Source of the DNA: Patescibacteria group bacterium
Lineage (GTDB): Bacteria > Patescibacteriota > WWE3 > JAMCXX01 > JBBTUG01
Length of the DNA: 48,356 bases
Assembly (NCBI GenBank): GCA_038063895.1
Contig: JBBTUG010000026.1
Coordinates: forward strand, 1-48,356
Direction: 5' to 3'
Positions within the stretch are counted from its first letter, which is position 1; every line of letters starts with the position of its first letter. The notes beneath the pieces were generated by a model. The model saw only the letters and a list, made by a program, of their open reading frames with translations. It was not told the DNA's origin and did no database searches. The position numbers were made by a program, and so were the translations under genes. Of this stretch, positions 8,206-34,956 are shown one piece after another.

Positions 8206-9153
8206 TTATTTTAACATACCGCTTTCGGAATTTTTTAACAGGAAGAGCATAAGGGCTTTCTGGGCATGAAGACGGTTTTCGGCCTGGTCAAAAACAACTG
8301 ATTGGGGCCCGTCGATAACTTCCGCACTGACTTCATTACCGCGGTAAGCCGGAAGGTCGTGCATAAAGATGGCGTCTTTTTTTGACAAATGCATCAGCGG
8401 GCCGTCAACAGTGTAGCCTCTGAAGATTTTTAGCCTTTTTTCTTTCTCACGCTCATCCCCCATTGAAATCCAGGTATCGGTATAAACTACATCGGCATCT
8501 CCGACGGCCTCCCGGGGCTCCCTGATCTCAATTATTTTCCCGCCCGATTTTCGGCAAAGTTCTTCCGCTTTTCGGGAAATATCGGAGTCCAGCAAAAAGC
8601 CTTTGGGACTGGCCACCCTTAACTCCATTCCCAGCAGCCCTGAAGCCAGAGCCAAGGAGTGCGTAACATTATTTTCCCCGTCTCCTACAAAAGCCAGCTT
8701 CAGGCCTTTGAATCTCTTTTTCTTTTCCAGGATAGTCATAAGATCGGCAAGAGTTTGGCAAGGGTGTTCGAGATCGGAAAGAGCGTTAATAACCGGAACT
8801 TTTGCGTATTTGACCATCTCCAATAAAACCCGGTGGTCAAAAACACGGGCCATAACCATACTCGCGACCCGTTCCAAAGTCCGCGTTACGTCAGCCACGC
8901 TTTCGCGTTTGCCCATCTGAATATCGTTTGGGCCAAGATAAATAGCATGCCCGCCCAACTCAAAAAAGCCGGCCTCAAAAGAAATTCTGGTCCGAAGCGA
9001 CGGCTTTTCAAAAATCATCGCCAGAACCCGGCCTTTAAAGTCGTGGCGGGACTTCCCGTGAGCGCGTTCTTTCTTTAAGAGAACTCCTGAAGCCAAAACT
9101 TTCTGGAGTTCCGTTTTGGTCAAATCCGATATCGATAAAAAATGTCGTATCAT
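8206..9153 (-). CDS. argF: Ornithine carbamoyltransferase (variant HDLP motif)
   Basis: FEKPSLRTR, HPCQTLAD, GDGENNV, YTDTWISMG (SMG loop), FMHDLP and QAENRLH. Confidence 0.92.
   Translation of the reverse strand: MIRHFLSISDLTKTELQKVLASGVLLKKERAHGKSRHDFKGRVLAMIFEKPSLRTRISFEAGFFELGGHAIYLGPNDIQMGKRESVADVTRTLERVASMVMARVFDHRVLLEMVKYAKVPVINALSDLEHPCQTLADLMTILEKKKRFKGLKLAFVGDGENNVTHSLALASGLLGMELRVASPKGFLLDSDISRKAEELCRKSGGKIIEIREPREAVGDADVVYTDTWISMGDEREKEKRLKIFRGYTVDGPLMHLSKKDAIFMHDLPAYRGNEVSAEVIDGPQSVVFDQAENRLHAQKALMLFLLKNSESGMLK
8208..8216 (-). promoter_or_regulatory. Putative extended -10 promoter (TGtTAAAAT) 6 nt before the GTG at 8201
   Basis: Minus strand reads TG-t-TAAAAT-aagtca-GTG, inside the 3' end of argF. 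No SD is visible. Confidence 0.5.
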
Positions 9154-10883
9154 TGGAGGCGGTAAATTATACCATCATCAAACCCAACGACTTCCGTAAA
9201 CCCCCCATAGACCTTCTCCGGTGCCCTCATTATCCGTCTCTGCCAGCAATCGTCTAGCGGGTTTTCCTGCGGGTATGGAAAAGGGTGAACCCCGATCATC
9301 GGATCTTTAGTGTGGACCAGAACGTAGTTAACTCCGCTTTTTTTAAGGACTCTGTATGAGTCAACCGAAGCTAAGTCTCCCAGAGCCGCCCGATCCTCTT
9401 TTGATAATTTTTCCGTCCCAAAAGTTATTTTCCCGTGCACCGTTTGATAAAAAGCCGTATAGGCACCGTTGTAATCACGCGTGATTTTTGGATCCAGCCA
9501 GCTGGGGCACCCGCCCCCAAGGTCGACAACGCTGTTGTCTCTCGGGTATTCAGCAATCAGCAACTCACCCGGTTGGCTCTTTAACCAGGCATAAACCTGC
9601 GGGACACGACCGACATCCATTACCGGAAGGGGCGGAAAATTAATGTTCTCGAAAAGAACCACCCCGCACAAAACCGCGGTCAAAACGGCTGCTGTTTTTT
9701 TTGTAATTTTTGCCAGGATAAACTTAAGACCGTAGCCGGCAAGAAAAGAAACGGCGAGCAAAACAAAAACCCCGGCCCGCGCGTAGACGCGAAACATGGG
9801 AAAAATCTTAAAGAGATAATATGAAGGAAAATATAGATGGATTCCTTTTATCTCAATAACCGCCGGGAGCGAAACTAAAAACATAATAACGGCCAGAGCC
9901 ACGAGAAGGCCGATACTTCGAAAATCGTCCGGTGAAACAGTGTGCGTCTTCCGCCGCCACGCCCTTAAAGCCGTCCAAAAAGCGTACAAAGCTAAACCCA
10001 TTCCGGTGAAAGTTAGGTAATTGGCCCGCTCCGGGAGAAAAGTGCTCCAAAACTGAAAGGAGTAGTTTTCTCTAACATATTGATAAAAGGTACGGACTGT
10101 TGATCCAAAAACCGGGTGGTAAATTGAGGGCATCAGGTAATCCCACGGTCTAGCCCCGTAAGCCACAACATCGTTCAGGCTGGAACGGTAAATATTTTCT
10201 TTTGAGTACTCGGCCCAAACAGAAGGCTTCCCCAAATAATCGAAAAAAACGTGGGTGGAGGGCAAAGTAAGGACGGTAAATAAAACAAGGAAAACCGGAA
10301 TATATAGAATATTAAGCCCCCTAGATCCTTTCGTAACGAAGTATTTATAGAGGGAAACCGTTAGCCAAATGGAAAAGACCGGGATCAAAGAAAAGAATCC
10401 CAAGTAAAAGGAGGTCATAAAAGCGGCCGCGGCGGGTAAAGATAAAGCCAGAAGACCTTTAGCGGACGGCCGTTCAATTAAGTTAATAAGAAAAAGAATA
10501 ATCAGAGGCAGCCAAAAAACCATCGCGAGTTCAATATTTTGTAGGGCGTGCCATTGGACAAAAAGTGAAGTGGCGTAAATTACCGCCGTAATTAGAGCCG
10601 GGCTTTTCGATTTTAGTAGACGCTGCCCCACGAAAAAAGCGGCCAGGAAATTGGCGATGAGAGTCAACAGCATAACTAAATTGTAAGCAGCCGCCGCCCC
10701 GGCTAAAATCGCGGGGGTATAAAGAAATATTGAAAGGAACGTCTGTTGGGGGAGAGCTGGAAAAAATATCCCCCGGAAATATCCCGCGACCGGCAGGGTA
10801 TTCTTTAGCCAGTCGTTGATAGAAAACAAATATCCCAGGACGTCGCTGGGATACCCTAGGATAAAAGAAGATAAATTAATCAT
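9150..10883 (-). CDS. Polytopic membrane protein, probable GT-C (YfhO-related) glycosyltransferase
   Basis: About 10 hydrophobic segments, DYLMPS, FPMFRVYARAG, and a soluble C-terminal domain with VYAWLK..GVNYVLVH. Confidence 0.65.
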   Translation of the reverse strand: MINLSSFILGYPSDVLGYLFSINDWLKNTLPVAGYFRGIFFPALPQQTFLSIFLYTPAILAGAAAAYNLVMLLTLIANFLAAFFVGQRLLKSKSPALITAVIYATSLFVQWHALQNIELAMVFWLPLIILFLINLIERPSAKGLLALSLPAAAAFMTSFYLGFFSLIPVFSIWLTVSLYKYFVTKGSRGLNILYIPVFLVLFTVLTLPSTHVFFDYLGKPSVWAEYSKENIYRSSLNDVVAYGARPWDYLMPSIYHPVFGSTVRTFYQYVRENYSFQFWSTFLPERANYLTFTGMGLALYAFWTALRAWRRKTHTVSPDDFRSIGLLVALAVIMFLVSLPAVIEIKGIHLYFPSYYLFKIFPMFRVYARAGVFVLLAVSFLAGYGLKFILAKITKKTAAVLTAVLCGVVLFENINFPPLPVMDVGRVPQVYAWLKSQPGELLIAEYPRDNSVVDLGGGCPSWLDPKITRDYNGAYTAFYQTVHGKITFGTEKLSKEDRAALGDLASVDSYRVLKKSGVNYVLVHTKDPMIGVHPFPYPQENPLDDCWQRRIMRAPEKVYGGFTEVVGFDDGIIYRLQ

Positions 10884-13444
10884 TTGGAAATAAAGAGCAG
10901 CGGACTGCCGTCCTGGTAGTGAACTTGAAGCCGTTGGCGGCCGTCGGGGGTCCGGGAAAGTGCCGTTAAGACAACCCCAAGATTAATTACGCCGTTGTCG
11001 CTTTCAATGGTTAAATTAAAGGTTGGGTTAAGGATTAGTACCTCATCGGCGAATTCGCCGAAACTTACCAACCGGAAGGAAAAGGGGCTCAGGGTATCGG
11101 CGCCCGAAAGGCTTATGTCATTTTTCTGAGGGTAATATAAAGGTGTCCCGACTGAAGAAACGTCCAGAAAATAAACGGAATTGGAAGGAAAATTAATGCT
11201 GTTTAATATTGCGTAGTCGGAAACCCCGAGAAAAGAGGGGTCATTATTGTAAGCGATTTCCAGAATGTAAATACCGTCGCTGTCGACAGCGAAAGTCCCG
11301 GAATACTGTTGACCGGAGGTGGAGAGGGAACTGACGGCATCCCCCGAAGAATCCAAAAGATTAAGCGTGTAAAAACCCGGACGCGGGCTTAGGTTAAGAG
11401 GAGTGTAATCAAGAGCAAAAGTATTTTCCCCCCGGAAAAGATAAGTATAAAATAAATAGTTATATTTTCGCGGCTGAGACTCTCTAGGCAACCGGATCTC
11501 CCGCGCCTCGCCCCTTGTTGCCCGAAAACTTTCCGGAACAACGTATCTTCCCAAAGATTTAAGTACTTCCGACTGATCTGCTCCCAGCATTCCCCCATTC
11601 ATTGAATAAAGAGCCATCCGCTTATCCGTTAATACTTCAGACCCGGAAGCGCTTGTGGCATAGCTGATTTTTCCGGCTCCGGGATACCCGATTAGATATT
11701 TTCCGGCCAAAAGAACCCCATTTGGGTTTACTTTCAGCTCACTAAATTCGGCATTAACAGGAAGTTTATTCGGACTTAAAGGGAGTTTTAAACCCCGCAA
11801 ACCAAAGGCCTTATCTACTACCACATAAGAGTCCTCGGCTGTAACCGGAACGGTAGTTTTAAAAAAGTGTTGTTGAACCCGGCCAGATACCGGAATAAGG
11901 AATAATAAAAGAAATAACAGTAATAGCCAGCGGGGATCCGCGGTGGGCCGGTCCGGCCGGGGCTTCAAAGCTAAACTTAGCTCCCGGAATAGTAAAAGGG
12001 TAAGCAGAACCGTCAGAACAGATACTTCCAACCGTGGAAGGGTCCCAATAATCCTCACTGTCAGCGTTATTCCAAAAAGAAAAACGCAGAGCGCGTCGAA
12101 ATAATAGCGGCGCCTTCCGACAAATTTTAGGACCGTGTGGCTATACCGGGCGGCGGGGAAGAATAATTTATCGCTAAAGGTTAAGAAGATTGCCAAAACG
12201 GAGATATTAATGAAAACGACTTCGAGAATGTGCCTAATTCCGAGGACTCCAAGAGAGGAAGCAACCAAACCTTGCCGGTAGCCACGATACAAAGTCTCAA
12301 GACTTTTATTGCTAAGTAAGGATTCGAGAACTCCTTTGGAATAGAAGACCGCAATAAAGCACCCGGAAGAAACAATAAATGTCAGGAAAAATAACCAGCG
12401 GTATTTCCGAACAAAGCCTAATAACAAGTTAACAGGAAGACGGAGAAGCTTAAAGACCGAAAAGTTAATGAGCAACTTCCGGTCCAGACTGACTATTCTG
12501 ACTGATACCAAAAGCAGAAAGGCTACCGCCAAAAAGACCCAGACCCAAATCTTATCCAAAAGACTCCAGTAGAGATCAAGGATATCCCCACCAATATCCT
12601 TGGCAACCCCGTGAACCCCGCTCCCTAACCAGAAGGTTAGGAAAGAAGTTACAGTTTTTACCCTCGCTTCGTCAAAAAAGGCCCTAGGGGAGAGTAAAAG
12701 TGTCCGGTGATTCCAGTCCGGAATAGCTACCAAGGGCTTTCCGAAGCTACTAAAGACAGTGTGCGCCCCTGGCCCGGTTGTTTTGACGTTGCCTAAGGAG
12801 CAAGTATCGCCAAAAACACGGAAAGGTTCAGGGTCTTCGCAGATAAGGATTATATTTCGGCTCTTAAGAAGCGGCCAAAAAGAATCTCCAAACCTCTTTG
12901 CGGTGGAGGACGTAAAAATAAAGGCTTTGGCCGGGTCGTATAAATTAATATCCGAAACGTAGCTGTAAGCCGCAACAGTTGCCCTTAGATTGGAAAAACC
13001 GGGATCCTCAAAAGAAAACTGAAGAAGATACCGGCCAGGATCTAAGTTCAGCGGGTTAATAAAGCTATCCGGCCGTAAGATATTTCTTTTGTCGACCTCA
13101 TCCCAATGGGAACCGTTCTGCCGGCTGAGCTTAAGAGTACCGAAGGCGTAGGGATAAGGGAACCTATCAAAAGTTAGTTTAATAAAGTCGGCCCGGTCAT
13201 TTAATGTAAAATCAATTTCCCGGGCAAACCACTTTTTTTGATCGCGGCTTTCAGTCGGAACAGGTTGCGAGTTGAAAAGAAGGTTACTTTCCCGCTTTAT
13301 CGGCGTCTCAACAAGAGCATTAGATTTCTGGAGTATTATCGTCCGGTAAATATCCTCCGCTTGAGCGTAAACCCGCCCAGTGCTTCCCGTCAGTAAGAAT
13401 ATGTAAACCAAAATAAGCGGCAGCAGTTTGCGGTTAAGGTTCAT
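10880..13444 (-). CDS. Large exported/membrane hypothetical protein (signal peptide, ectodomain, central TM bundle, second ectodomain)
   Basis: Signal-like MNLNRKLLPLILVYIFLLTGSTGRVYAQA, a central hydrophobic region (about aa 295-520) and soluble flanks. Overlaps both neighbouring genes. Confidence 0.75.
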   Translation of the reverse strand: MNLNRKLLPLILVYIFLLTGSTGRVYAQAEDIYRTIILQKSNALVETPIKRESNLLFNSQPVPTESRDQKKWFAREIDFTLNDRADFIKLTFDRFPYPYAFGTLKLSRQNGSHWDEVDKRNILRPDSFINPLNLDPGRYLLQFSFEDPGFSNLRATVAAYSYVSDINLYDPAKAFIFTSSTAKRFGDSFWPLLKSRNIILICEDPEPFRVFGDTCSLGNVKTTGPGAHTVFSSFGKPLVAIPDWNHRTLLLSPRAFFDEARVKTVTSFLTFWLGSGVHGVAKDIGGDILDLYWSLLDKIWVWVFLAVAFLLLVSVRIVSLDRKLLINFSVFKLLRLPVNLLLGFVRKYRWLFFLTFIVSSGCFIAVFYSKGVLESLLSNKSLETLYRGYRQGLVASSLGVLGIRHILEVVFINISVLAIFLTFSDKLFFPAARYSHTVLKFVGRRRYYFDALCVFLFGITLTVRIIGTLPRLEVSVLTVLLTLLLFRELSLALKPRPDRPTADPRWLLLLFLLLFLIPVSGRVQQHFFKTTVPVTAEDSYVVVDKAFGLRGLKLPLSPNKLPVNAEFSELKVNPNGVLLAGKYLIGYPGAGKISYATSASGSEVLTDKRMALYSMNGGMLGADQSEVLKSLGRYVVPESFRATRGEAREIRLPRESQPRKYNYLFYTYLFRGENTFALDYTPLNLSPRPGFYTLNLLDSSGDAVSSLSTSGQQYSGTFAVDSDGIYILEIAYNNDPSFLGVSDYAILNSINFPSNSVYFLDVSSVGTPLYYPQKNDISLSGADTLSPFSFRLVSFGEFADEVLILNPTFNLTIESDNGVINLGVVLTALSRTPDGRQRLQVHYQDGSPLLFISK

Positions 13445-13841
13445 TCTGTCCTCCGCCGGTTAAATCCTTGAGGAACGTTATTAGTAAGAGAGAAAACGAA
13501 AAGACGGCAAAGATCTCCGCAGAGGCGTTCAGTTTAAGTAAAAAGGCTGCGGTCATAGCCGCAAAGGAAGCCAGAGCAAGAGCTCTTAATATTCCGCTTC
13601 CGACCTCTACAAGCAGCGACCACGCAGCTAAACCAATAACGACGACAAGCAGAATATTTAATAGTGAAAAGTCGTAAAGGAGGAGAAATACCAGAGCCAA
13701 CACGGGCAATAAAATTGTCGTTGTCAGAAAAAGTTCATTAACGAGGCGGCCCCGGGAGGGCCCGGGACTAAGTTGCGGAAAAAAAACCCGCAGAGAGATA
13801 AAGCCGCTTATCAATAAGATTAGAACGTCCGTTAACGCCAT
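13434..13841 (-). CDS. Small integral membrane protein (4-5 TM)
   Basis: 135 aa, almost entirely hydrophobic, and overlaps both flanking genes. Confidence 0.75.
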   Translation of the reverse strand: MALTDVLILLISGFISLRVFFPQLSPGPSRGRLVNELFLTTTILLPVLALVFLLLYDFSLLNILLVVVIGLAAWSLLVEVGSGILRALALASFAAMTAAFLLKLNASAEIFAVFSFSLLLITFLKDLTGGGQNEP

Positions 13842-16315
13842 ATCATTAAGTAAACAAGACAGAATAAAACAACGATTAACAATATCAGCAAATACAGGTA
13901 AAGATCTCGTTGGGCGCTAAATTCCAGGATCAAATTAAGATTGTAAGTTCCGTCCGGATTTAGTGTTAATAAATCGGAGTGACTTAAGGAACCGGGGTCA
14001 ATGATCCAGCCATTGGCGAACCCGTTGCTTTTGAAATGTCTGCTACCGCTTATCTCTTTAAGCCCAATGGTTTCAAAGGTTCGCTCGTTTAGAAAGGCGC
14101 TCCCGTAAAGGAAACTTTGTCCCGAAATTTTCGTCTGGTAGAGTTTCCATTGTGGATCGAAGCTTTCGATAAATTGAAGAATAAACTGTCGGGGCGCCGA
14201 ATTTACGGAAATATAATATTTAGTGGGATTAATTCTTGTGAATTTTATTTCTTTTGGAGAACCGGGGGTAAATACCGTAACCGAAACGCTCCCCATCTTC
14301 TGGTCCGTCAGCGCCGCTTCTAAAGATTGTACGGCTAACTTGTCGGTGGTAAAGACATCTTTTGCCGCAAAATTATCCGAAGAAACGATGTCATTATACT
14401 CGGAAGGTTCAGCCTTCGCGTAAATAAGCCGGAGGGGAGAAAAAATCCGGACGGTTTTAAGATAATCTGGGGTAATATAAAGAACAAGGCCTGGCTCGTC
14501 ACGGAGTTCGGCATAAAGAGAATCGCGCACGTACAGATTAGGGTCGCCGTTAGGGATTTCGGAGAGGTACTTATCAGAAAAATTACCAAAAGCTTCCTTT
14601 CTCGGCAGAACCGAATCCAACGCGGCCATGGTTTTTTTCGGGCTGGAGGACGCGCCGCCGGTGTAGCGCCAGTCGAAATCGTTTTCCTGCAATAAATAAT
14701 CTACTCCCAATACCGCCAGATATTTCGCCGGAAAAGTGCCCTTAAGCAGACTTTGGTACACATTATTAAGAAACGAGTTCGCCGAGGAGCTGGAAGAAAG
14801 CGACATCCTAAGAACATTGTTGTCGTGATTGAGAAAACTGCCGGCGATATCATCCGCTGACGTAAATCCCTGCGGCCAGTTCCAAGCACCACCGTAGGTA
14901 ACCCGTGGCGTGGTAAGAATTCTTGCGCCGGTAAGATTATTTTTGGCGAACCCCTCGAAATCCTTCCAGTACTTCGGAATATTGACCCGGTAGCTCCGGA
15001 CACTGCCGTTCCAATTAGAAACTACTCCCTCGGCGAAATACGCCGGTTTAATCGAGACGATAACACCCAAAGCGATCAGGGAAAAAATCACGGTTTTTTT
15101 AATTCCCCAAGACCACAACGAAACCCGGGTTAAAAATATAAAAAGCAACAGACTGATAGAAAGCACGTAAATCTCCGAAAACTTTGTGAATGGCTCCCGA
15201 AATATTTTAAATAAGGGAAAATTATCAAAGATAAACTTATATGCCACGCCAAACGGGGGCCGCGCTCCACCGACTAAAAAGAGGCTGGCGATGGCTAAAC
15301 CGAACAGATAGCTCTTTTTTGACTTGAGTTCCCCTTTAACGCCTTCCCTGATCGCCTCGAAGAAAGCGGCGAAAACTACGAGGTAGGTCAGGACAACAAC
15401 GAAAGGCCGGTCGTAATAAGCACTGAAAGGATAGTAAGGTCTAAGGAAGTGGCTTACATACCAGCCCCATTGGCCGATAAACCTAAAATTTTGGAAAAGG
15501 CTGCCGACTTGCGTGGCCAGAAAATACTTCTCCGGGGCAAAGGTATCCGCCGACAAAGATCTAAAATACGAAAACATCGGTATTAGCCACCAGAGGCTGG
15601 ACATAATCATCACCAGAGAAAAAATAAGCAGATTCTTAATTCTGACGCGAGAGAGTCTGGAAATATTAAGGGCAATATAAAGAGCCTGTGGAATAAAAAC
15701 GGTTAAAGACAGAGCCGGGTTGGCGTTGATTGGCGAAAAAAATGTTGCGAGCAAGATGTATTTGGCAACGTCGCGGAAGGCCAGGCGGTCCTGATCAAAA
15801 ATTTTAATAAAGTAATAGAGGGACCACGGCAAATAGGCGCCATACATCAGTTGAAAATAAGTAAACTGATTTAAAGAGGCGAAAGCATTAAAGCCCAACA
15901 GAAGACAGGGCAAAAGGTAAACCAGAAATGAGGCCGGTCTTTTGGACAGAAATGTATTTGCCAGTTTAATAAAGCCGAAAAACTTAAAGGAGATGAGAAA
16001 GAATATTAAAAGCCTTTGCAATACCGGCGCGGAGAGAAAACCGAAGAGTTGGGTGTAAAGCTGAAAACCGAGAAGATTAGAAATGGTAAAACTGCGGATG
16101 CCCCAAGGATAGCCTACATCCCAAACGTACGGGTACATCTTTTGTCGCCCAAGTTGTAGATAAGGGTAATTATCGCCGCCAGCCAGAAGTTCCGAACCAC
16201 CAAAAAGTAGCCTAATATGGAATAACTCAAATAAAACAATAAAGACCAAAAATAAAAACCAAATTTTATGTTGGGAAAAAAACCTAAGAAGGTTACCGAG
16301 TATATTTTTAAACAT
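13832..16315 (-). CDS. Polytopic GT-C-like membrane protein (AftD/YfhO-like)
   Basis: GGDNYP..W after TM1, FRFIGQWGW, PLFKIFREPFTKF, LGVDYLLQEND, and C-terminal INPTKY..ESFDPQW..HFKSNGFANGW plus a TM anchor. Confidence 0.72.
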   Translation of the reverse strand: MFKNILGNLLRFFSQHKIWFLFLVFIVLFELFHIRLLFGGSELLAGGDNYPYLQLGRQKMYPYVWDVGYPWGIRSFTISNLLGFQLYTQLFGFLSAPVLQRLLIFFLISFKFFGFIKLANTFLSKRPASFLVYLLPCLLLGFNAFASLNQFTYFQLMYGAYLPWSLYYFIKIFDQDRLAFRDVAKYILLATFFSPINANPALSLTVFIPQALYIALNISRLSRVRIKNLLIFSLVMIMSSLWWLIPMFSYFRSLSADTFAPEKYFLATQVGSLFQNFRFIGQWGWYVSHFLRPYYPFSAYYDRPFVVVLTYLVVFAAFFEAIREGVKGELKSKKSYLFGLAIASLFLVGGARPPFGVAYKFIFDNFPLFKIFREPFTKFSEIYVLSISLLLFIFLTRVSLWSWGIKKTVIFSLIALGVIVSIKPAYFAEGVVSNWNGSVRSYRVNIPKYWKDFEGFAKNNLTGARILTTPRVTYGGAWNWPQGFTSADDIAGSFLNHDNNVLRMSLSSSSSANSFLNNVYQSLLKGTFPAKYLAVLGVDYLLQENDFDWRYTGGASSSPKKTMAALDSVLPRKEAFGNFSDKYLSEIPNGDPNLYVRDSLYAELRDEPGLVLYITPDYLKTVRIFSPLRLIYAKAEPSEYNDIVSSDNFAAKDVFTTDKLAVQSLEAALTDQKMGSVSVTVFTPGSPKEIKFTRINPTKYYISVNSAPRQFILQFIESFDPQWKLYQTKISGQSFLYGSAFLNERTFETIGLKEISGSRHFKSNGFANGWIIDPGSLSHSDLLTLNPDGTYNLNLILEFSAQRDLYLYLLILLIVVLFCLVYLMIWR

Positions 16316-16332
16316 CCAGAAGGTGCAGATAA

Positions 16333-18390: not shown

Positions 18391-18403
18391 ATTCTGAAAT
18401 CTT

Positions 18404-19206: not shown

Positions 19207-19208
19207 AT

Positions 19209-23981: not shown

Positions 23982-23986
23982 ATCTT

Positions 23987-26221: not shown

Positions 26222-26248
26222 ATTACTTGTTTAGCGTTCAAATTAAAG

Positions 26249-28669
26249 CTACAATTTAGAATTTTTTTCTTTGGGCGGACGGCCGAGAACTATAAAAACC
26301 AGTGATAATATCAACGAAAGGGCGCTGATCGTTAGTCCAATAAAAAAGGCGCGGGGCTGGTAATAAAATTTTATTTCATGTTTTCCGGGAGGAACAGTCA
26401 CTCCCATAAAAGCCAGGTTGGTCCGGATGACTTCCCTATCTACCCCGTCTATTTGAACTTTCCAGTCAGGATAATAAGGCCAACTGGTGACTAAAAAACC
26501 GGTACTTCGGATATTTGCTGAGTAAATCTTTTCAGTATTTCTTTCCGCAATGGTTAGAAGACTTTCGGAGGCGGAGGCTACTGAAGGTCCAGTATCTCCC
26601 AAATTACTTACTAGGTTGGATGGATCGCTAAATACTAAGTTAGACTGCTGATTAAACACGAGAGCCGTTTCTTGTGGATTAAATTTTTGACTGGAGATAA
26701 GATACCTGGCCTCATCATCGTTGACCGAGAGTACCTTATCAACAAGAATGGGATATCGAAAATAGGACGTGTTCTCATACACTCGAATCTTCGTTCCCAA
26801 CGGAACGGGCTCCCATCCCCCAACGCCCAGGTGGAAGTAGTAAGGGAAATTAGTCCGATTAACTTCCTGCGTAAAAGCAAGTTTATAACCTTCCGAATTC
26901 ATATCGGTTTCCGTAACCGCGTATCTTAGGGCTGAAAGGGTATCAACAAGGCTATTGCGGGGGGCTAAAGACATAAGTTCATAAAAACTGAAAGTTATCT
27001 TATTGGTATAAACGAGGTAACCAACAATATGATTAATACCAAAGAGCCCCGACGCATAATTATGCGGCAGTGCCCTAACGTCCGACCGATAAAAACCGTT
27101 GTTGTTATCTTTGGTGATGAATTTAACAACCTCGTGGTTAGGAATCAGTTTTGTGGGATCGACCCCGATCAAGTTAATTGGATATTTTTCCGCAAAAAGA
27201 AATAGGTCAAAAAATAGTACGAGAAATACGACAACTTTAAAAACCCTCTTGCTCGATTCCAGCAGATAGAAGCAACAAAGGGAAAAAACAAATAACAATA
27301 CGAAGAGAACCAGTGCATTAAGCCCGTGGAAATAAGGCGTAGGCGGATTTTCCGGCTGCTTAAGCGACCACAAAAACTGATCGACCCGAAAGAATATTAT
27401 AAACGTAACTAACAAAATCAGCTTAAATAAACCGAGCAACCATTCCTTATATTTTATTATTTTCTCTTTATGTTCCTGGTAATAGACGGTTATGTTTTCC
27501 AAACCGTACGCGGCGGTAACAGCTAAACCAAATTGGACTATGTATAAAGCCAGACGGTGCTCACTAAAAACCCGCATCACGGGGAAAAAAAGCAGGTAAA
27601 ATATACCAAAAATTGGGCTATCACCACCGAAGGAAAAGAGAAGAACAGTAACAGCCAAAAAAAAGAAAAATAGTTGAAGCTTGTGCCTTCTTTTATAGAA
27701 CGCTGGAATAATAAGGAGCCAAGTAAGTATCCCCACGTAGGTATAAGGAAGTGTCCCCTGATATAGATGCAGTACTTCTGTACCACCGTAGTTGGTTGCC
27801 GTCAGGTATGGAATAATAAAATCGAATACTTGCCACGGTTTTAGGTTTCCGGCAAAAGCTGATTGAGTAAAATTAAGGGTTGCGCGGTTAGAGATAAGAG
27901 GAACCTCTAAACCCGGTAAAACAACAACCGCAGAAATAAGAGCTGCGAAAATAAGCCCCAAGAAGGCGTAGATTCCCGATTTCCAAAAGCTTTTTATATC
28001 TCGGGAAAAAAAGACGAAAAGAAAATAATAAAAAAGTAACATGGAGTGATAAGTGATAGCGCTTGTCCAAGAAAACGTAATGACAGGCATGGCAAAAACT
28101 AAAGAAAAAATAGAAAGCCGGCGGAGATTAGGTTTTCTAATAAGATCATCGAAGGTAATTAAAACAAATGGTAGTAAGCTCATGCTGACCTGCAGAGCGG
28201 TTGTGTTGGCGAAAGCAATTAACCCACCATTTAGCATGTAGATTAACCCGCCAATAAAAGCGGAAAATCGGGAAAGATTAATCTTTCTTAGGAACAAATA
28301 GGTACCTATTCCGGCCAGAGAAAAATGGAATACCGTCGTCACCTCCATTAAAAGATAAATGGCCTGGTTTGATATCTTAAAAACGGTACTAATAAGGACA
28401 AGTAAACCAAACGGAGGATAAAAGACCATCGAATCCGGGCGGGTTAAAAGAGGAATGCCGAAAAACGTATGCGGATCCCAAAGTGGAATTATTCCCTCAC
28501 GAAGCTGGTAGATTATCGATGCAAGAGTATTAAAGGATAATATCGCGTCGTTGCCAAAAAATACGCGTTCGGGCACCGGTAATAAGTCCCTCCAAAAAAC
28601 AATAAACGGTAGGATGAGCAAAATCAGAGGGTATCTATTGCTACTTAGAAAGCATTTAAATTTTTTCAT
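26249..28669 (-). CDS. YfhO-family membrane glycosyltransferase (GT-C)
   Basis: G-IPLWDPHTFFGIP, FYPP, YVGI and C-terminal YYPDWKVQIDG..NLAFMGVTVPPGKHEIKFYYQP. ATG 28669 is the likely start. Confidence 0.85.
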   Translation of the reverse strand: MKKFKCFLSSNRYPLILLILPFIVFWRDLLPVPERVFFGNDAILSFNTLASIIYQLREGIIPLWDPHTFFGIPLLTRPDSMVFYPPFGLLVLISTVFKISNQAIYLLMEVTTVFHFSLAGIGTYLFLRKINLSRFSAFIGGLIYMLNGGLIAFANTTALQVSMSLLPFVLITFDDLIRKPNLRRLSIFSLVFAMPVITFSWTSAITYHSMLLFYYFLFVFFSRDIKSFWKSGIYAFLGLIFAALISAVVVLPGLEVPLISNRATLNFTQSAFAGNLKPWQVFDFIIPYLTATNYGGTEVLHLYQGTLPYTYVGILTWLLIIPAFYKRRHKLQLFFFFLAVTVLLFSFGGDSPIFGIFYLLFFPVMRVFSEHRLALYIVQFGLAVTAAYGLENITVYYQEHKEKIIKYKEWLLGLFKLILLVTFIIFFRVDQFLWSLKQPENPPTPYFHGLNALVLFVLLFVFSLCCFYLLESSKRVFKVVVFLVLFFDLFLFAEKYPINLIGVDPTKLIPNHEVVKFITKDNNNGFYRSDVRALPHNYASGLFGINHIVGYLVYTNKITFSFYELMSLAPRNSLVDTLSALRYAVTETDMNSEGYKLAFTQEVNRTNFPYYFHLGVGGWEPVPLGTKIRVYENTSYFRYPILVDKVLSVNDDEARYLISSQKFNPQETALVFNQQSNLVFSDPSNLVSNLGDTGPSVASASESLLTIAERNTEKIYSANIRSTGFLVTSWPYYPDWKVQIDGVDREVIRTNLAFMGVTVPPGKHEIKFYYQPRAFFIGLTISALSLILSLVFIVLGRPPKEKNSKL

Positions 28670-29369
28670 TATTACCGCTGACAAATTTTATACTACCGGG
28701 ACCGCAGTTGAAAAGGGTATCTATAACCGAAAGATGCGAGACAAAGTCCCCGTGAAGCTGGGGGTATATGGGATGGAGATACTCGTGAAAAATTAATTTT
28801 ATCCCGTTCTGTCTGAACTCCTCCGGGGAATAAAGAGTTTTACCCGCCGGCCCGTTAAGGTATGTTGTCGCCCCGTAGTACTTGCATAGATCCAGTACGT
28901 AGCTCTTTCCACCATGATTAGCAATAGAAACATCGGAGGCCATTTCCAATGGTGTGGATATCCCGAGATAACCTCGGACGGCTTTGATTAGACCAATAGA
29001 GAGCTGAATTAAGTAAGTTGGTTTTTCCGAATAAACCTTCTCCACAATATTATAAATTTCCCCAAAGAAAGGGGTATGCCGGTAGCTCTGGGAAATTGTT
29101 TTTAAGTGCTTTTCCGGCCAGTTAGTGGAGTAATCGATTTCCACATTTATTATTTTTGTTCCGAAGTTATGCTTCACCGGAACAGTGAGCCACTTTACTC
29201 CCGAGGGAGTTTTAATTCTGTTGCGCTGCTGCCACGACTGCCTGGAAAACTGGACATTATTTAGGATCACAAACAAATCGGACCTGGCCATCATGTCAAA
29301 CATACCCAACCATGGCAAGAATAGGGGTTGCAAAATAACCAGCGTTTTATTGGACAAAGGTGTGCTCAT
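28656..29369 (-). CDS. wbqC: WbqC-like protein
   Basis: LQPLFLPWLG..D, VQFSRQSWQQRNRI, WLTVPV, YLNGPAG, YPQ and SVIDTLFNCG. Confidence 0.9.
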   Translation of the reverse strand: MSTPLSNKTLVILQPLFLPWLGMFDMMARSDLFVILNNVQFSRQSWQQRNRIKTPSGVKWLTVPVKHNFGTKIINVEIDYSTNWPEKHLKTISQSYRHTPFFGEIYNIVEKVYSEKPTYLIQLSIGLIKAVRGYLGISTPLEMASDVSIANHGGKSYVLDLCKYYGATTYLNGPAGKTLYSPEEFRQNGIKLIFHEYLHPIYPQLHGDFVSHLSVIDTLFNCGPGSIKFVSGNNEKI

Positions 29370-29372
29370 AAA

Positions 29373-30281
29373 TCATCCGCTGTCGGCCCTAAACAATACT
29401 TCCAAACCCATGCTTAAAGAGTAGGCCGGGGTATAACCCAGCTCTTCTACTGCCCGGCTAATATCCAAATAAAATCGGCTATCCTGTCCAATTTCTTGAC
29501 TAATCTCGACTTTTCCTTTACCTACAACATTTACAATCCCGTTGGCAAGCTCTAGCATGCTCGTTTCCTGGCCTGATCCAATGTTATAAACGCCGCATTT
29601 TCCCTCTAAGCCGGCTTTAATTGTAACATCCGCGACATCATCAATATAAACGAAGTCCTGGCTCCTGCTTCCGGATCCAAAAACCGATAGAGTTCCTCCT
29701 TTTTTTGCGTTACCGAGAAATAGCGGGAGGACACTCCTTTGTGATTGACCAGGTCCATAGACTGAAGAATATCTTAAACTTACGCAGGAAAATGGGTGGG
29801 TACGACTAAGGCTACCGAGATATACTTCTCCCAACAGTTTACTTTCTCCATAAAAATTACGGGGGCATACTTCATTTTCGGAAACCGGCAGCTTTTCCGG
29901 ATATTCCGGATAGACCGAGGCGGAGGACGAAAAAACAAGTTTTCCTAGTTTGTGCTTCAAGCCTTCTTCGACTAAATTAATGGTACCAAGAGTATTAACG
30001 TTAAAACAATTGAACAGTTCCTCGACGTAGTTCTTAGAGTCGGCTTTAGGTATATAGGCAGCTAGGTGAAATATTAAATCAAACCGGTTATTTAAGAATA
30101 GTTTTTCTAAATCTTCTTTTTTTACAATATCTACACCTAAGATACCATTAACCTGATCACCGTTTTTAGATATTCCAATAACTGAATACCCTTGTTCCCT
30201 TAACTTCGCGTAAACGTGTTTCCCTATAAAGCCGGTTGCGCCGGTAACTAGTATTTTCATATTAGAGCTTGGATAAGCCAT
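29373..30281 (-). CDS. NAD-dependent epimerase/dehydratase (extended SDR)
   Basis: VTGATGFIG, FHLAA, FSSSASVY, YGESK and LRYSSVYGP. Confidence 0.92.
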   Translation of the reverse strand: MAYPSSNMKILVTGATGFIGKHVYAKLREQGYSVIGISKNGDQVNGILGVDIVKKEDLEKLFLNNRFDLIFHLAAYIPKADSKNYVEELFNCFNVNTLGTINLVEEGLKHKLGKLVFSSSASVYPEYPEKLPVSENEVCPRNFYGESKLLGEVYLGSLSRTHPFSCVSLRYSSVYGPGQSQRSVLPLFLGNAKKGGTLSVFGSGSRSQDFVYIDDVADVTIKAGLEGKCGVYNIGSGQETSMLELANGIVNVVGKGKVEISQEIGQDSRFYLDISRAVEELGYTPAYSLSMGLEVLFRADSG

Positions 30282-30293
30282 AAATAGCCGATG

Positions 30294-31013
30294 CTAAAAA
30301 GTATTTTCTATTTTGTAGTTAAGTTTGCGTCCGTATCCTAACAAAATTGCCGCGCAGACTTTTACATATAACTCCAGTTTATTAAATAGATTATATTTGG
30401 AGACACCGGATTTACGGGGAACAGTGGGAACAGAAAAATATCCAACTTTAGCTTTTACTTTGGACAGATTATAGGGAAAGAAGGCGTACGAGTAAGTCTC
30501 CAAACGGTTGAAGTCATATAAGAATTTGGCGTCAATAACTTTGAGTGGGGTTTGGTCTCGGGGAATTTGAAAACGAGAAATTAAATAAACTCCGATCCAG
30601 AATATTTTAGAAAGCAGCCCATTTCCCAAACGGCTGTCGCGCCGCAAACCATAAACAATGTTATATCCTTCGGCCTTCATCAGTTCAAGCATCCGGATTA
30701 CATGTTCGGGCGGGTTTTGCATATCGGCGTCGGCAATAACCACATAATCACTATCAGTTACTGACCGTGTGCCTATCAATAAGCTGGGATGTTGACCAAC
30801 GTTAAATTCCAAATTAATTACCTTAATCTGGTAACCAAAGCCCTCCTTAAGCCTTAGAATTACTGACAAGGTATCGTCCTGACTAGCATCGTTTACCACC
30901 ACGAACTTCGGATAATACCCGGCTTTTCTAACTATTGAGTCAAAGGCGGAAAAAAGCTCTGCGATTGTCGCAGCCTCATCATGAACCGGTATCACTACCG
31001 TTACCGTTTCCAT
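30294..31013 (-). CDS. GT2, ArnC/GtrB-like polyprenyl-phosphate glycosyltransferase
   Basis: VVIPVHDE, VNDASQDDT, NVGQHPSL, DADMQNPPE, IVYGLR and R..GVSKY. It lacks the long C-terminal two-TM tail of GtrB. Confidence 0.85.
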   Translation of the reverse strand: METVTVVIPVHDEAATIAELFSAFDSIVRKAGYYPKFVVVNDASQDDTLSVILRLKEGFGYQIKVINLEFNVGQHPSLLIGTRSVTDSDYVVIADADMQNPPEHVIRMLELMKAEGYNIVYGLRRDSRLGNGLLSKIFWIGVYLISRFQIPRDQTPLKVIDAKFLYDFNRLETYSYAFFPYNLSKVKAKVGYFSVPTVPRKSGVSKYNLFNKLELYVKVCAAILLGYGRKLNYKIENTF

Positions 31014-31018
31014 TATAT

Positions 31019-32011
31019 TTATTTTCCAACACTCCTAGATTTATAGATATAACGGACGTTGTAGTATATGTCTTCTTCGAAGTTACTAATCTCACCTTTC
31101 TCTAAATGACCGATAATTTCTTTTACTCCATCCTCAACACTACGAGTACAGGTCATTCCCAAAACCTTTTCCAGCTTTTCAAAACTGACGCGATAATTTC
31201 TTTTATCCTCTATTTCCTTCTTTACTTCGGCAGTGGCCAAAGGAATAGCCTGGCTCACAATATCGCCTACCTGCTCTATAGTTAAGTTATTGTTAATGCT
31301 ACCGACATTAAATATTTTCCGATCAACTGTCTCCTCTGGAGCAAGAGCGGCCTTTACGAAAGCCTCCGCCACGTCCTGAACATGGACTAAGGGTCGCCAC
31401 TGACCCCCACCAAAAATTGTAAAACTCCGCTTAAAAAAGGCTTTAGCCGTTAGAAAATTAACCACGAGATCAAACCTCATTCTCCTAGAATACCCAAATA
31501 CAGTAGCCAAACGTAAAATTACCGGGGAAATTGTACCGGGCGAATTAAGCAGGGATTGTTCGGACATAATTCTGGTTTCCGCGTAAAGAGAAAGCGGGTT
31601 AGGTGTAGTCTCTTCATTCGCTACGAGGTCTTTTGTATCACCATAAACACTGCAAGACGACGCAAATACGATTCTTTTAACTTTATATTGGTCACAAACA
31701 TCAATCATAGTTTTTGTGGCCAGATAATTAGTATTGATTGTTTCTTCCGGGTCAAGGTTACAGGCAGGATCTCCAACGATTGCCGCCAAGGCTATAACCG
31801 CATCCTTTCCTTTTGTGGCTCTCACAACAGCTTTTAAATCACATATATCACCGAGAACGAAATTGAAGCGATCCCGACCGATAAATTCTTCGAGCCCCTT
31901 ATTACCGTAAGAAAGATTGTCCAAAACCGTGACATTGTGGCCTAATTCAAGAAGTTTTCTAGTTACGAAGAAACCCACGTAGCCGGCACCGCCGGTCACC
32001 AGAATGTTCAT
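31019..32011 (-). CDS. NAD-dependent epimerase/dehydratase (extended SDR)
   Basis: VTGGAGYVG, LAAIVGDPAC, ASSCSVYG, LYAETR (YxxxR) and RMRFDLVVN. Confidence 0.92.
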   Translation of the reverse strand: MNILVTGGAGYVGFFVTRKLLELGHNVTVLDNLSYGNKGLEEFIGRDRFNFVLGDICDLKAVVRATKGKDAVIALAAIVGDPACNLDPEETINTNYLATKTMIDVCDQYKVKRIVFASSCSVYGDTKDLVANEETTPNPLSLYAETRIMSEQSLLNSPGTISPVILRLATVFGYSRRMRFDLVVNFLTAKAFFKRSFTIFGGGQWRPLVHVQDVAEAFVKAALAPEETVDRKIFNVGSINNNLTIEQVGDIVSQAIPLATAEVKKEIEDKRNYRVSFEKLEKVLGMTCTRSVEDGVKEIIGHLEKGEISNFEEDIYYNVRYIYKSRSVGK

Positions 32012-32021
32012 ATATGGAGTT

Positions 32022-32030
32022 AGTATAACA
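32022..32030 (-). promoter_or_regulatory. Putative extended -10 (TGtTATACT) 10 nt before ATG 32011
   Basis: Minus strand reads TG-t-TATACT-aactccatat-ATG. Confidence 0.55.
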
Positions 32031-32039
32031 AAGATGGCA

Positions 32040-33179
32040 TTAGAGTAGTTTTTTGTCTAACCGGCGGATGGCCCTGATAACTGTTTCCACCTCTCTATCT
32101 GACAATCCCGGGTAAAGAGGCAACGTGGCTACCCTGGAAAATACGTCTTCTGTGATCGGTAAAGAAAGGTTTTTCGGGAGGAACTTCTTAAAAATCGGGT
32201 GGGTGTGCATTGGAATATAATAAACACTCGATGCCACACCCAAGTTTTCCAGTTCCTCCATAAAACGATTACGGTTAACTTTTTTATCTACTAATATAGG
32301 GAAAAAATTCCATACGTGTTCCTTCGGAAATATCGGGTAAGGGGATCGGACAATATTTAGGTGGGTTATCTCCTGATAGTATCTTTTGGCAATCTCTCTT
32401 CTCCGAGCGACAAAACTATCCACCTTGTGAAGTTGTGGCAGACCAATAGCGGCCTGCAGGTCGGTCATATAGTACTTAAGGCCGGGTTCCACAACTTTGA
32501 AAAACCAGCTCGTACGGGATTTGTGCCTTTTCCACGCCGAAGCATCCACTCCCAGCTTTGAAAGAAGCCTAACCTTGTTGGCAATCCTATCATTGTTGGT
32601 GGTGAGAGCTCCCCCCTCTCCCGTTGTCATATTTTTAGTAGCGTAAAAGCTAAAACAAGTATAATCGGCTATTGAACCAACTTTCCTTCCTCCAAACGAT
32701 GCTCCAAAAGAAGTTGCAGCGTCCTGAATTATATGAATACCGGTCCCCTTTACTATCTTTTTTATCTCACCTATGGGAGAAGGCAGCCCGGCATAATCCA
32801 CCGGAACAACGGCCTTAGTTTTTTTCGTAATCTTTTTAGCTATTTCAGCAACATTGACTGTTAACGTCCCGGGATTAACGTCAACAAATACTGGTTTGGC
32901 GCCAATATTGCAGAGAACGTTTCCGAGTGAAGTATAAGTCAAAGAGGGAGTAATCACCTCGTCGCCGCTTCCTATCCCCAACGCGATCAAGAGTAAATGG
33001 AGAGAGGCTGTACAGGAGGAAGTCGAGATCGCATTTCTCACCTCCAGATATTTGGTCAGCTCTTCTTCGAATTTAGCAACTTTAGGTCCGGCCGTAAGCC
33101 AACCGGATTCCAGACTATCCTTTACTCCGGCCAGTTCTTCTTTCCCGATAGTTGGTCTCGATACACGTATTATCTTCAT
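32040..33179 (-). CDS. DegT/DnrJ/EryC1/StrS (ArnB-like) PLP-dependent sugar aminotransferase
   Basis: SSCTASLHL, QDAA and CFSFYATKNMTTGEGG with the PLP lysine. Confidence 0.93.
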   Translation of the reverse strand: MKIIRVSRPTIGKEELAGVKDSLESGWLTAGPKVAKFEEELTKYLEVRNAISTSSCTASLHLLLIALGIGSGDEVITPSLTYTSLGNVLCNIGAKPVFVDVNPGTLTVNVAEIAKKITKKTKAVVPVDYAGLPSPIGEIKKIVKGTGIHIIQDAATSFGASFGGRKVGSIADYTCFSFYATKNMTTGEGGALTTNNDRIANKVRLLSKLGVDASAWKRHKSRTSWFFKVVEPGLKYYMTDLQAAIGLPQLHKVDSFVARRREIAKRYYQEITHLNIVRSPYPIFPKEHVWNFFPILVDKKVNRNRFMEELENLGVASSVYYIPMHTHPIFKKFLPKNLSLPITEDVFSRVATLPLYPGLSDREVETVIRAIRRLDKKLL

Positions 33180-33180
33180 G

Positions 33181-34956
33181 TTATAGTTTGGAAATCAAAT
33201 AATTTTCCAGCGCTAAGTACTGCAACCCGGACTTCTCGAAAGCATTATAGGCCTCTTTTGGCCCGAGGACAATAGGATACCCGTGTAAATTGAAAGACGT
33301 ATTTAAGACGCCTCCGATCCCCGTCAGGTTCTCAAATTCCTTAATTATTTTATAATACTTCGGGTTCCACGACTCCTCCACGATTTGTGGCCGGCAAGTA
33401 AAGTCATAGGGATGAAGAGCTGCCTTAAGATCCCCTCTACCCAATGGCGTTGTAGCAAAAGATAGCACCATATACGGCGCCTCGACATTCTTCGGGTTCA
33501 CAAGGTAGTCTCCGGCCCGTTCTTTGAGAATAGAAGGAGCAAACGGCATCCAAAAATCCCTATCCTTCATTTGCTCGTTAATAATCATGACCACTTCGGG
33601 GTCAGAGGGGTTGGCTAAAATTGTTCTGTTCCCGAGGGCTCGGGCTCCCCACTCCATCCTCCCGGATAAACGTCCCACTATCTTCTTTTCGGATAGTAGC
33701 AAGGCAATTCGCTTCTCGATGTCCTCGAAGTATTCAACTTTATACTTATCTGCAACCGAGTTTTCGTCCAGGAAGTCTTTAACGGCTTGAAGAGAATAAC
33801 TTGGGCCTAAGTATAAATCCTTAATTGGTTCAATTTCCGGATCCCTGTACGTTGACTTCAGAGACTCCACGTAAGACACGAAGCACGCGCCCAAAGGGCT
33901 GGACTCATCACTGCCGCTTGGCATGAAAAAAACTTTACCCACTTCTGGCAGTTCCGTAATTTTTTGGTTAAGTTTAACATTCATAAATACACCTCCCGTG
34001 CAGCAAAGTGTATCCACGCCGGTAACCTTAATGGCCTGGCGTACCCAAGCCAAAACAGTGTCTTCAAGGACTTTCTGAAAAACACCAGCTAGAACATCGA
34101 AGCGGACCTCACTCATTTCCTCACGTAAGTACTTGGGCATCTGCCTCATGTCAAACTTAGAGTGTATTTCCAGATTATCCTTTCCACCAAGTCGAAATAA
34201 GTCTTGCACTTTGATAAAAGCCTTATTAATTGAATATTCTTTGGCATAGGGAGCAAGACCCATGACTTTGTATTCGTGCTCGCCCACTTTCATTCCTAAA
34301 TGCTTCGTAACGGCGGCGTACATAAGACCAAGAGAGTTATCTGCATGCGTCCGGGAAATCCTTTCGTAGCGTCCTTTGTTAAAGACATTTACCGTGGCAC
34401 AAACACCATCTCCTTCTGCATCCAAAGTTAAAACCAAGGCTTTTTCTTTACTGAATTTTGAAGCGTAATACCCGGCAAAAGCATGGCTTTTGTGGTGATC
34501 GTGCGCGACCAGCTTATCCGACGGTATGTTCAAATAATCTGCAAGTAATTTTCTTTCTTTAGAAGATGTGTAGACCCCGACAGTACGGGAAAAAAGTTGA
34601 TAAAACAACCGCCCTAAATTCCTTAGCCTGGGATTGTAAAAACTGACGAACCCGTAAGTATTTTTGACAAGTGGGATGCGGTAGTAAATGAAGTTAACTA
34701 GTTGGATGAAAAGACTTTTCTTATTTTCTTCTGACGCGTAAATCGGAGCTGTTGATCTAACCGGAACGACAACTGCGTCTAGATCCAAGCCCGTTAATTT
34801 ATGCTTTTGTAAAATATAAGTAATTGAGTTCTTTGGGAGACCCGACTGGTTTTTGACATTCGTAAACCTCTCCTCACTCACACAGTCAGTAATTACACCA
34901 TCGACTAATAAAGCGGCGGTGCTGGTATGTCCGTAATATACTCCTAAGATTTTCAC
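33181..34956 (-). CDS. NodU/CmcH/TobZ-family O-carbamoyltransferase
   Basis: EERF, HHKSHA, DAEGD, EYKVMGLAPY, GGVFMNVKLN, GARALGNRTILA, MPFAPS and LNTSFNLHG. Confidence 0.93.
   Translation of the reverse strand: MKILGVYYGHTSTAALLVDGVITDCVSEERFTNVKNQSGLPKNSITYILQKHKLTGLDLDAVVVPVRSTAPIYASEENKKSLFIQLVNFIYYRIPLVKNTYGFVSFYNPRLRNLGRLFYQLFSRTVGVYTSSKERKLLADYLNIPSDKLVAHDHHKSHAFAGYYASKFSKEKALVLTLDAEGDGVCATVNVFNKGRYERISRTHADNSLGLMYAAVTKHLGMKVGEHEYKVMGLAPYAKEYSINKAFIKVQDLFRLGGKDNLEIHSKFDMRQMPKYLREEMSEVRFDVLAGVFQKVLEDTVLAWVRQAIKVTGVDTLCCTGGVFMNVKLNQKITELPEVGKVFFMPSGSDESSPLGACFVSYVESLKSTYRDPEIEPIKDLYLGPSYSLQAVKDFLDENSVADKYKVEYFEDIEKRIALLLSEKKIVGRLSGRMEWGARALGNRTILANPSDPEVVMIINEQMKDRDFWMPFAPSILKERAGDYLVNPKNVEAPYMVLSFATTPLGRGDLKAALHPYDFTCRPQIVEESWNPKYYKIIKEFENLTGIGGVLNTSFNLHGYPIVLGPKEAYNAFEKSGLQYLALENYLISKL

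Follow-up and report, generated by a model that had tools for sequence, protein, structure and literature searches.

What does a gene for ornithine carbamoyltransferase (OTC) do inside a glycan operon of a tiny groundwater member of the Patescibacteria? The window, i.e. the whole 48,356-nucleotide stretch of DNA that we analyzed, is contig C26 of genome G000, which comprises 968,139 bp in 40 contigs and is 94.4% complete. It carries the OTC gene and a gene for an O-carbamoyltransferase (CT) of the TobZ/NovN/NodU type. The initial annotation had proposed that the OTC is a dedicated source of carbamoyl phosphate (CP), made from scavenged citrulline or arginine, for O-carbamoylation of the surface glycan. 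Our analysis partly supports this proposal, and OTC as the CP source for glycan O-carbamoylation is the best available reading. We put the probability at roughly 55% that the OTC phosphorolyses citrulline, is the sole source of CP, and feeds the glycan CT that lies 24 kb away in the same island.

To establish the identity of the OTC, we compared it with curated profiles, solved structures, and known active-site motifs. The open reading frame (ORF), 315 aa in length, contains the two OTCace domains (E 3.4e-58 and 1.8e-47) and scored 394.7 bits against TIGR00658 (cut-off 280.85) and 411.8 bits against NF001986 (cut-off 306). It fell below the curated cut-off for putrescine carbamoyltransferase (TIGR04384, 312.2 bits versus 500), and its NCBIfam profile scores were likewise under the cut-offs for N-acetylornithine and aspartate transcarbamylases. 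The top solved relative was the OTC of Pyrococcus furiosus (1a1s, E 4e-92). All catalytic motifs are intact (SLRTR, HPCQ, GDGENNV, DTWISMG, and HDLPAYRG). As defined in PMC6022934 (cited here, like the other papers below, from excerpts), the CP-binding motifs SxRTR and HPxQ and the ornithine-binding motif DxxxSMG are all present, and the ornithine-recognition set of DxxxSMG and NN is complete. The HCLP motif, whose Cys is the rule in most OTCases (PMC6022934, PMC4581275), reads HDLP instead.

This substitution called for scrutiny, since HDLP replaces HCLP in the L-2,3-diaminopropionate and L-2,4-diaminobutyrate transcarbamylases (DPTCase and DBTCase) as well (PMC6022934, PMC4581275). Those enzymes, however, as defined in the excerpt of PMC4581275, combine HDLP with a DxxxSMG motif that has lost its Asp (TRWQSMG or S/TRWQTTG), whereas the window OTC retains DTWISMG and most of its clade occurs with argG and argH. 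Among the best 120 database homologues (57-90% identity; those with names are from Woesebacteria and Gottesmanbacteria), SLRTR is kept in 118, HPCQ and D.W.SMG are kept in all 120, and Asp replaces the HCLP Cys in 118 (46 HDLP and 72 HDMP; HCLP in the other 2). In a maximum-likelihood tree of 57 OTCs, the candidate phyla radiation (CPR) clade is supported at 100/99, and Asp and Cys forms alternate inside it. For instance, L018 (HD) and L186 (HC) are sisters at 100/99 in the same arg context. Because sister sequences in one and the same context can differ in having Asp or Cys, we did not take HDLP as grounds for exclusion from OTC, and with DxxxSMG kept and argG and argH beside most of the clade, we rejected it as a sign of a new, DPTCase/DBTCase-like substrate. 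We read the window enzyme as probably a genuine ornithine/citrulline transcarbamylase whose active site tolerates an unusual residue.

The profile scores agree with the initial call of argF, and the gene junctions with the initial description of how it meets its neighbors. The ATG start of the OTC overlaps the stop of the upstream gene as ATGA, and its TAA stop is followed, after 4 nt, by the GTG start of a GT4 glycosyltransferase gene. Both junctions are bridged without differences by contigs of two further runs that were not flagged as a possible source, so that the placement does not depend on a single assembly. The upstream neighbor had been called a GT-C glycosyltransferase; the adjacency holds, and the GT-C identity meets only sub-threshold matches (PMT_2, 19.5 bits versus 26.1; YfhO, 16.7 versus 28.5). 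The CT, presented as a complete enzyme of the NodU/CmcH type, is indeed a complete two-domain member of the family (PF02543 plus PF16861), well above the gathering scores for Carbam_trans_N (E 4.9e-37, 128.6 bits versus 24) and Carbam_trans_C (E 1.8e-56, 190.8 bits versus 27). It is not NodU proper (NF041651, 91.4 bits versus a cut-off of 1000), and its closest solved relatives are 7xb6, NovN, TobZ, and GdmN (E 3e-55 to 2e-47). In an alignment of six CTs, H154, H155, H158, D179, R439, N443, R444, K464, and R466 are invariant; these residues may form part of the metal-binding and YrdC-like (nucleotide/CP) sites.

Next to the OTC, what else in this cell could make or use CP? A domain scan of 33 window ORFs found no arg, arc, car, or pyr gene besides the OTC, as the initial annotation had stated. 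We extended the inventory to the whole of G000 by family searches, whose controls in reference genomes scored as expected and whose limit is the 94% completeness of the genome. These recovered one OTC with no second transcarbamylase, no aspartate transcarbamylase (ATCase), and one Carbam_trans_C match, which is the window CT. There were no candidates for the carbamate kinase arcC, no matches for the arginine deiminase (ADI) arcA with TIGR01078 or PF02274, and no argG or argH. For carB the sole match, at 18.6 bits, lay in an ORF assigned to D-Ala-D-Ala ligase. Neither carAB nor a full arginine pathway, which by the initial annotation would have counted against its proposal, is thus on hand to account for argF. 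Given these absences, an anabolic OTC would have no CP to work with and no use for its citrulline. The marks of a catabolic OTC of the ADI pathway, a carbamate kinase and an arginine deiminase, are also missing from G000, and with no deiminase found, arginine as the scavenged compound has no support. The CT is the only other CP enzyme recognized in the genome.

Enzymes of the TobZ/NodU family use CP and ATP as donors, via carbamoyl-AMP. From the gene identities, the operon anatomy, the absence of other CP genes, and the recurrent synteny in relatives described below, we infer a direction for the OTC reaction, a hand-over of CP, an uptake of citrulline, and a sugar as acceptor. In the proposed mechanism, the OTC would run phosphorolytically, converting scavenged citrulline and Pi into ornithine and CP, and would be the only CP source of the cell. 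The CP would then be consumed by the ATP-dependent CT, which would carbamoylate a sugar of the surface glycan. The phosphorolysis is unfavorable, and the strongly exergonic CT reaction, in place of carbamate kinase, would have to pull it; by our reckoning the CT reaction may be exergonic enough to do so.

Parts of this mechanism have precedents. Catabolic transcarbamylases are counted as a third class of CP source in a review, as excerpted. Genetic work published in 2026 on Thermococcus kodakarensis, which has no carbamoyl-phosphate synthetase (CPS), traced the CP for pyrimidines and [NiFe]-hydrogenase maturation to arginine via the arginine synthetase ArcE and OTC; the OTC, ArcB, was genetically required for CP supply, and arcC was dispensable (PMC13260591). 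As in our proposal, there is no CPS, OTC phosphorolysis supplies biosynthetic CP, and carbamate kinase can be dispensed with. The archaeal case differs in that ArcE forms the citrulline from arginine, the organism has arcC, the supply genes do not sit with those of the consumer, and the support comes from genetics (PMC13260591). G000, by comparison, is bacterial, yielded no recognizable ArcE and no ADI or arcC, has a glycan CT as the proposed consumer, and ties the two enzymes together by gene clustering only. Since OTC as a biosynthetic CP source has been shown in T. kodakarensis, the present case offers no new principle. What is new is the bacterial setting, a glycan CT as the proposed consumer, and the repeated occurrence of the presumed producer and consumer in one cluster, even in overlapping reading frames. 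The classical ADI pathway (ArcB-ArcC) resembles the proposal too, as OTC converts citrulline to CP there and is pulled by a CP consumer encoded nearby, and a glycan-cluster OTC described below is sister to an arcC-adjacent one. It differs in that G000 lacks arcA and arcC, and the pulling enzyme would be an ATP-consuming transferase, so that the cell would incur an energy cost and not a yield. The CTs of antibiotic and Nod-factor clusters (TobZ, NovN, GdmN, and NodU) share the PF02543 plus PF16861 architecture of the window CT; unlike G000, their producers have a housekeeping CPS. In literature searches at the level of abstracts, we found no described OTC embedded as the CP supplier of an O-carbamoyltransferase, nor a described OTC function in CPR bacteria.

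The initial annotation had looked to relatives for co-localization of argF with CT genes, and such co-localization is what we found, by direct adjacency, within shared clusters, and with a further transcarbamylase family beside CT. Two independent loci have OTC and CT side by side. One is L015 (genome G134), where, with GT2 and methyltransferase genes around them, the end of the OTC and the start of the CT share 4 nt (L096 comes from the same population and has a 100% identical CT); the other is L101, in which the CT begins 36 nt past the OTC. The L015 and L016 records, which contain the closest genome-collection relatives, are titled 'uncultured Gammaproteobacteria', yet their content is of CPR type (an OTC of the window clade, DUF5667, and ~1-Mb genomes without carB), and the titles look like mislabels. 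In G308, the OTC ends an array of methyltransferase, CT, GT2, and GT4 genes, 12 kb from the CT, and G308 and L015 have in common a module of an AftD-like protein of ~1100 aa, a 112-aa protein, and a protein of ~900 aa. In G338, the OTC overlaps an SDR gene and is itself followed by 2-epimerase, DegT, and GT2 genes, with a CT 4 kb away that is 52% identical to the window CT. This OTC belongs to another lineage with canonical motifs (STRTR, DVWVSMG, and HCLP) and shares 66% identity with the OTC that is linked to arcC in G387, the two being sisters at 100/99. Immediately upstream of it stand thiolase and SDR genes (L176:6977-8934), which hint that this cluster adds a 3-hydroxyacyl decoration to an amino sugar. 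The neighbors of the G355 OTC are GT4 and methyltransferase genes, and the CT of that genome is on a different contig. The OTC of G387 is 24 kb from a CT yet adjacent to arcC, and we did not count it as a glycan case. We found no carB, arcC, argG, or ADI in G134, G308, G338, or G355, and no second transcarbamylase in the last three.

A third transcarbamylase family takes the same position. Its members carry STRTR, HPCQ, and HCMP, lack DxxxSMG, score ~275-285 bits on the OTC model, and are 66-74% identical to one another (L194:8972-9913, L195:4977-5921, L196:8139-9098, and L197:10873-11817). In G252, this HCMP family is clustered with ygeW and arcC, which is a catabolic setting. In G621, whose complete genome is a single contig and belongs to another family, a glycan/heptose-type operon holds it at a distance of 246 nt from a CT, and in G099, from the window's own class, it lies 2 kb from a CT. 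G099 lacks carB, arcC, argG, and ADI, and G621 lacks carB. For comparison, no CT was present in the fetched flanks of 134 HCLP-type OTC loci from other organisms (98 of them with at least 5 kb on one side), whereas 3 of 26 HD-type loci had one, 2 of them non-redundant. The patterns used to search for related loci were too general: of 80 genome loci just 6 fell in the CPR clade, as did roughly one in four of the metagenome loci.

To see how often the arrangement arose, we examined the OTC tree further. In the free tree, the window OTC groups with OTCs from ATCase contexts (99/87), apart from the glycan clade of L015, L101, and G308. We dropped the idea that the window recruitment was independent of that clade, since, despite this separation, an approximately unbiased (AU) test did not reject a single origin (delta lnL 14.0, p 0.28; the L015/L101/G308 group was named after the tree was seen). 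Two OTC lineages, the CPR clade and the ADI-type lineage of G338, are firmly independent recruitments to glycan clusters, and the HCMP family is a third.

We then asked whether OTC and CT co-occur in a sample of 301 genomes from the class of G134 (Microgenomates-like), 20 of which have an OTC above cut-off. All tests were naive: they took no account of phylogeny or genome size, and the genomes come without completeness values. CT was present in 13 of 20 genomes with OTC versus 74 of 281 without (Fisher odds ratio (OR) 5.2, p 6e-4), and, within carB-less genomes, in 10 of 15 versus 40 of 217 (OR 8.9, p 1e-4). The 87 CT-bearing genomes include G206, flagged as unpublished and counted only as having CT and no OTC. 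CT also went with the presence of any CP source (47/85 versus 40/216, OR 5.4, p 1e-9); carB was found in 69 and arcC in 2 of the 301. Among the 13 genomes with both genes, OTC and CT lay within 25 kb in 4 (0.70 expected by chance, P 0.006) and within 13 kb in 3 (0.36 expected, P 0.006), and on different contigs in 8. Neither carB nor arcC occurs in 14 of the 20 OTC genomes; of these, 9 encode a CT, in 4 an ATCase adjoins the OTC, and only G285 shows neither.

The gene contexts of these 20 OTCs vary. Eleven are argH-argG(-second transcarbamylase)-OTC, 4 are next to an ATCase of HPLP type, 1 is arcC-OTC (G387), and 4 are in glycan clusters (G134, G308, G338, and G355). The four genomes with OTC next to ATCase (G318, G433, G306, and G415) have no carB or arcC, an arrangement that suggests citrulline-derived CP for pyrimidines. 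OTC likewise adjoins an HPLP-type ATCase and dihydroorotase in the metagenome loci L097:9989-13088, L098:1007-4095, and L099:279-3307, and in L100:6911-10933 pyrD, dihydroorotase, and ATCase stand divergent from OTC. In L180, L184, L188, and L189 (G427, G270, G325, and G312), a second transcarbamylase of unassigned type follows or lies inside argG-argH-OTC, in genomes without carB. In the window's own class, an OTC above cut-off occurs in 2 of 134 genomes, G000 and G001; in the latter, which has no arcC or carB, argG-argH-OTC is followed by a YgeW-type transcarbamylase (L014:1002-5873; 539 bits versus a cut-off of 453). In G456, G551, and G530, larger Patescibacteria genomes of one family, the OTC domain makes up the last third of a protein of 778-789 aa, and the ~470 aa at the N terminus of this protein match no Pfam family. 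In the regions fetched for G456 and G551, an ATCase fused to an MGS-like domain lies nearby, with an amino-acid kinase gene alongside in G456 (long OTC proteins and nearby genes at L198:2916-5252 and 6862-8181, and at L199:4721-7090 and 3120-4457).

The two genes lie in two minus-strand glycan blocks of the window, divided by two plus-strand genes (Table 1). Besides the OTC and the GT4 gene next to it, the first block encodes four further GT4 enzymes, a methyltransferase, a 970-aa GT2, an AftD-like GT-C, an RmlD-GT2 fusion, and three proteins without a family above threshold (577, 854, and 135 aa). The fusion (16333-18438) is a single 701-aa protein in which a GT2 glycosyltransferase domain is combined with a dTDP-4-dehydrorhamnose reductase domain of the RmlD type. 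The second block encodes a GT2, two unassigned proteins of ~740 aa, YfhO, WbqC, two epimerase/dehydratases, a GT2, a DegT aminotransferase, the CT, and a GT2. Elsewhere, G000 appears to hold two F-type ATPase alpha plus beta gene sets (C16:128-4089 and C23:10734-14429), one canonical (728 and 789 bits) and the other divergent (361-399 and 513 bits).

Table 1. Positions of the OTC, the CT, and their surroundings in the 48,356-nt window.
Feature	Position	Strand	Basis or remark
OTC	8206..9153	-	OTCace domains, TIGR00658/NF001986; sole transcarbamylase found in the genome
Upstream gene, 577 aa, stop overlaps OTC start	9150..10883	-	No family at threshold
GT4 glycosyltransferase	7020..8201	-	Starts 4 nt past the OTC stop
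TobZ/NovN/NodU-type O-carbamoyltransferase (CT), 591 aa	33181..34956	-	Carbam_trans_N + Carbam_trans_C
DegT/DnrJ/EryC1-type sugar aminotransferase, immediately downstream of CT	32040..33179	-	Domain scan
Tightly packed co-directional glycan block of 12 genes, with OTC	2..18438	-	ORF list + domain scan
SDR and DUF4012 genes dividing the two minus-strand blocks	18457..21050	+	Domain scan
Second co-directional glycan block, with CT	21055..36090	-	ORF list + domain scan

Several observations weigh against OTC-derived CP for the glycan CT. Within the window, the two genes are in separate transcription blocks 24 kb apart. Of the 87 CT-bearing genomes in the 301-genome sample, 40 have no OTC, carB, or arcC, and four CT-bearing members of the window's class (G002, G012, G014, and G020, the last a single contig) have neither OTC nor carB. 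Evidently the CTs of OTC-less genomes work without OTC, or an unrecognized CP source exists, and the word 'dedicated' in the initial annotation was too strong. In a sample of 269 genomes across the phylum, co-occurrence was weak, with CT in only 2 of 12 genomes that have an OTC hit above cut-off (G000 and G621) versus 17 of 257 without, and the tests on the 301 genomes are naive in the sense given above. The AU result is compatible with a single origin of the window OTC and the L015/L101/G308 glycan clade, and in 11 of the 20 contexts examined the OTC goes with argG and argH. The supply of citrulline is unexplained as well, because G000 has no ADI, no APC-type amino-acid permease (PF13520), and no recognizable arginine synthetase. 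ArcE is a P-loop protein (PMC11032458), and we therefore ran NCBIfam over every ORF of G000 that has a Walker-A motif and a length of 330-560 aa, 26 in total. Of these, 24 fell in ordinary housekeeping families and two had no match (C24:20834-21976 and C34:13828-14991), so that no arginine synthetase was recognizable among the 26 in a database that may hold no ArcE model.

How well do other explanations fare? The one that survives best would have CP come from an unrecognized or host-derived source and the OTC run anabolically, making citrulline or an N-carbamoylated ornithine-like amino acid for the glycan or wall, with OTC and CT as parallel consumers. The 40 CT-bearing genomes and the four class members without a known CP source point to such a supply, the Cys-to-Asp change in HCLP is the one seen in diaminopropionate and diaminobutyrate transcarbamylases (PMC6022934, PMC4581275), and 6 of the 11 argG/argH-linked OTCs lie in carB-less genomes, where on this reading they would need CP. 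Yet G000 lacks the argG and argH by which the citrulline would be used, and the OTC keeps DxxxSMG and NN intact, while the Asp-Cys swap between L018 and L186 means that Asp is no mark of a new substrate. In addition, the glycan-cluster OTC of G338 is canonical and sister to an arcC-linked, and therefore catabolic, OTC, and the lability of CP (PMC6022934) would in our judgment make its uptake unlikely. We consider parallel consumption unlikely overall.

Still less probable, in our estimate, is that the OTC and CT have no functional link, the OTC being a passenger or remnant in a variable, transfer-prone glycan island and the CT obtaining its donor as it does in OTC-less relatives. The rarity of OTC in the window's class (2/134) fits this explanation. 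So does the finding that, apart from five metagenome proteins with 75-90% identity, the nearest OTC relatives (57-66%) belong to another class, which suggests lateral acquisition. The distance of 24 kb across separate blocks fits too, and since glycan genes fill nearly all of the 48 kb, any insert here would look 'embedded'. Against it, the OTC retains every catalytic motif, and the ATGA overlap and 4-nt gap place the gene inside the operon by translational coupling. Moreover, two or more unrelated OTC lineages and a third family of transcarbamylases show this arrangement again, down to an overlap of OTC with CT, and it is absent from the 134 OTC loci of other organisms. Least probable of all, and very unlikely in our view, is that the OTC makes CP from citrulline for another sink, such as energy conservation through a carbamate-kinase analogue or another carbamoylation, with its glycan position a regulatory convenience: sinks do vary among carB-less relatives of the clade, as OTC stands beside ATCase and dihydroorotase in L097-L100 and in G318, G433, G306, and G415, but G000 has no ATCase, second transcarbamylase, or arcC-like kinase and a single Carbam_trans_C match, and the CT is the only CP-using enzyme recognized.

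Beyond the window, we regard it as possible, at somewhat less than even odds, that Patescibacteria without CPS and carbamate kinase make CP only by phosphorolysis of scavenged ureido compounds, with transcarbamylases repeatedly wired by operon to whichever CP consumer was kept. Citrulline would serve via OTC and another compound via the HCMP family, and the consumers would be the glycan CT or ATCase with dihydroorotase. If so, citrulline would be an obligatory 'carbamoyl vitamin' derived from the host or community, and argG-argH-OTC operons would be citrulline-utilization modules and not remnants of arginine biosynthesis.

Should the narrower reading hold, in which the window OTC supplies CP to the glycan CT, a 'catabolic' transcarbamylase reaction would be pulled by an ATP-dependent O-carbamoyltransferase, with the pair hard-wired into surface-glycan clusters. 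This would account for the supply of a compound as labile as CP in ultra-small symbionts that have neither CPS nor carbamate kinase, and it would name citrulline as a specific metabolite that they have to take from their partners. It would also predict O-carbamoylated surface glycans in uncultured groundwater Patescibacteria, and it would carry the Thermococcus principle, in which OTC provides CP for biosynthesis, over to bacteria and to the decoration of glycans.

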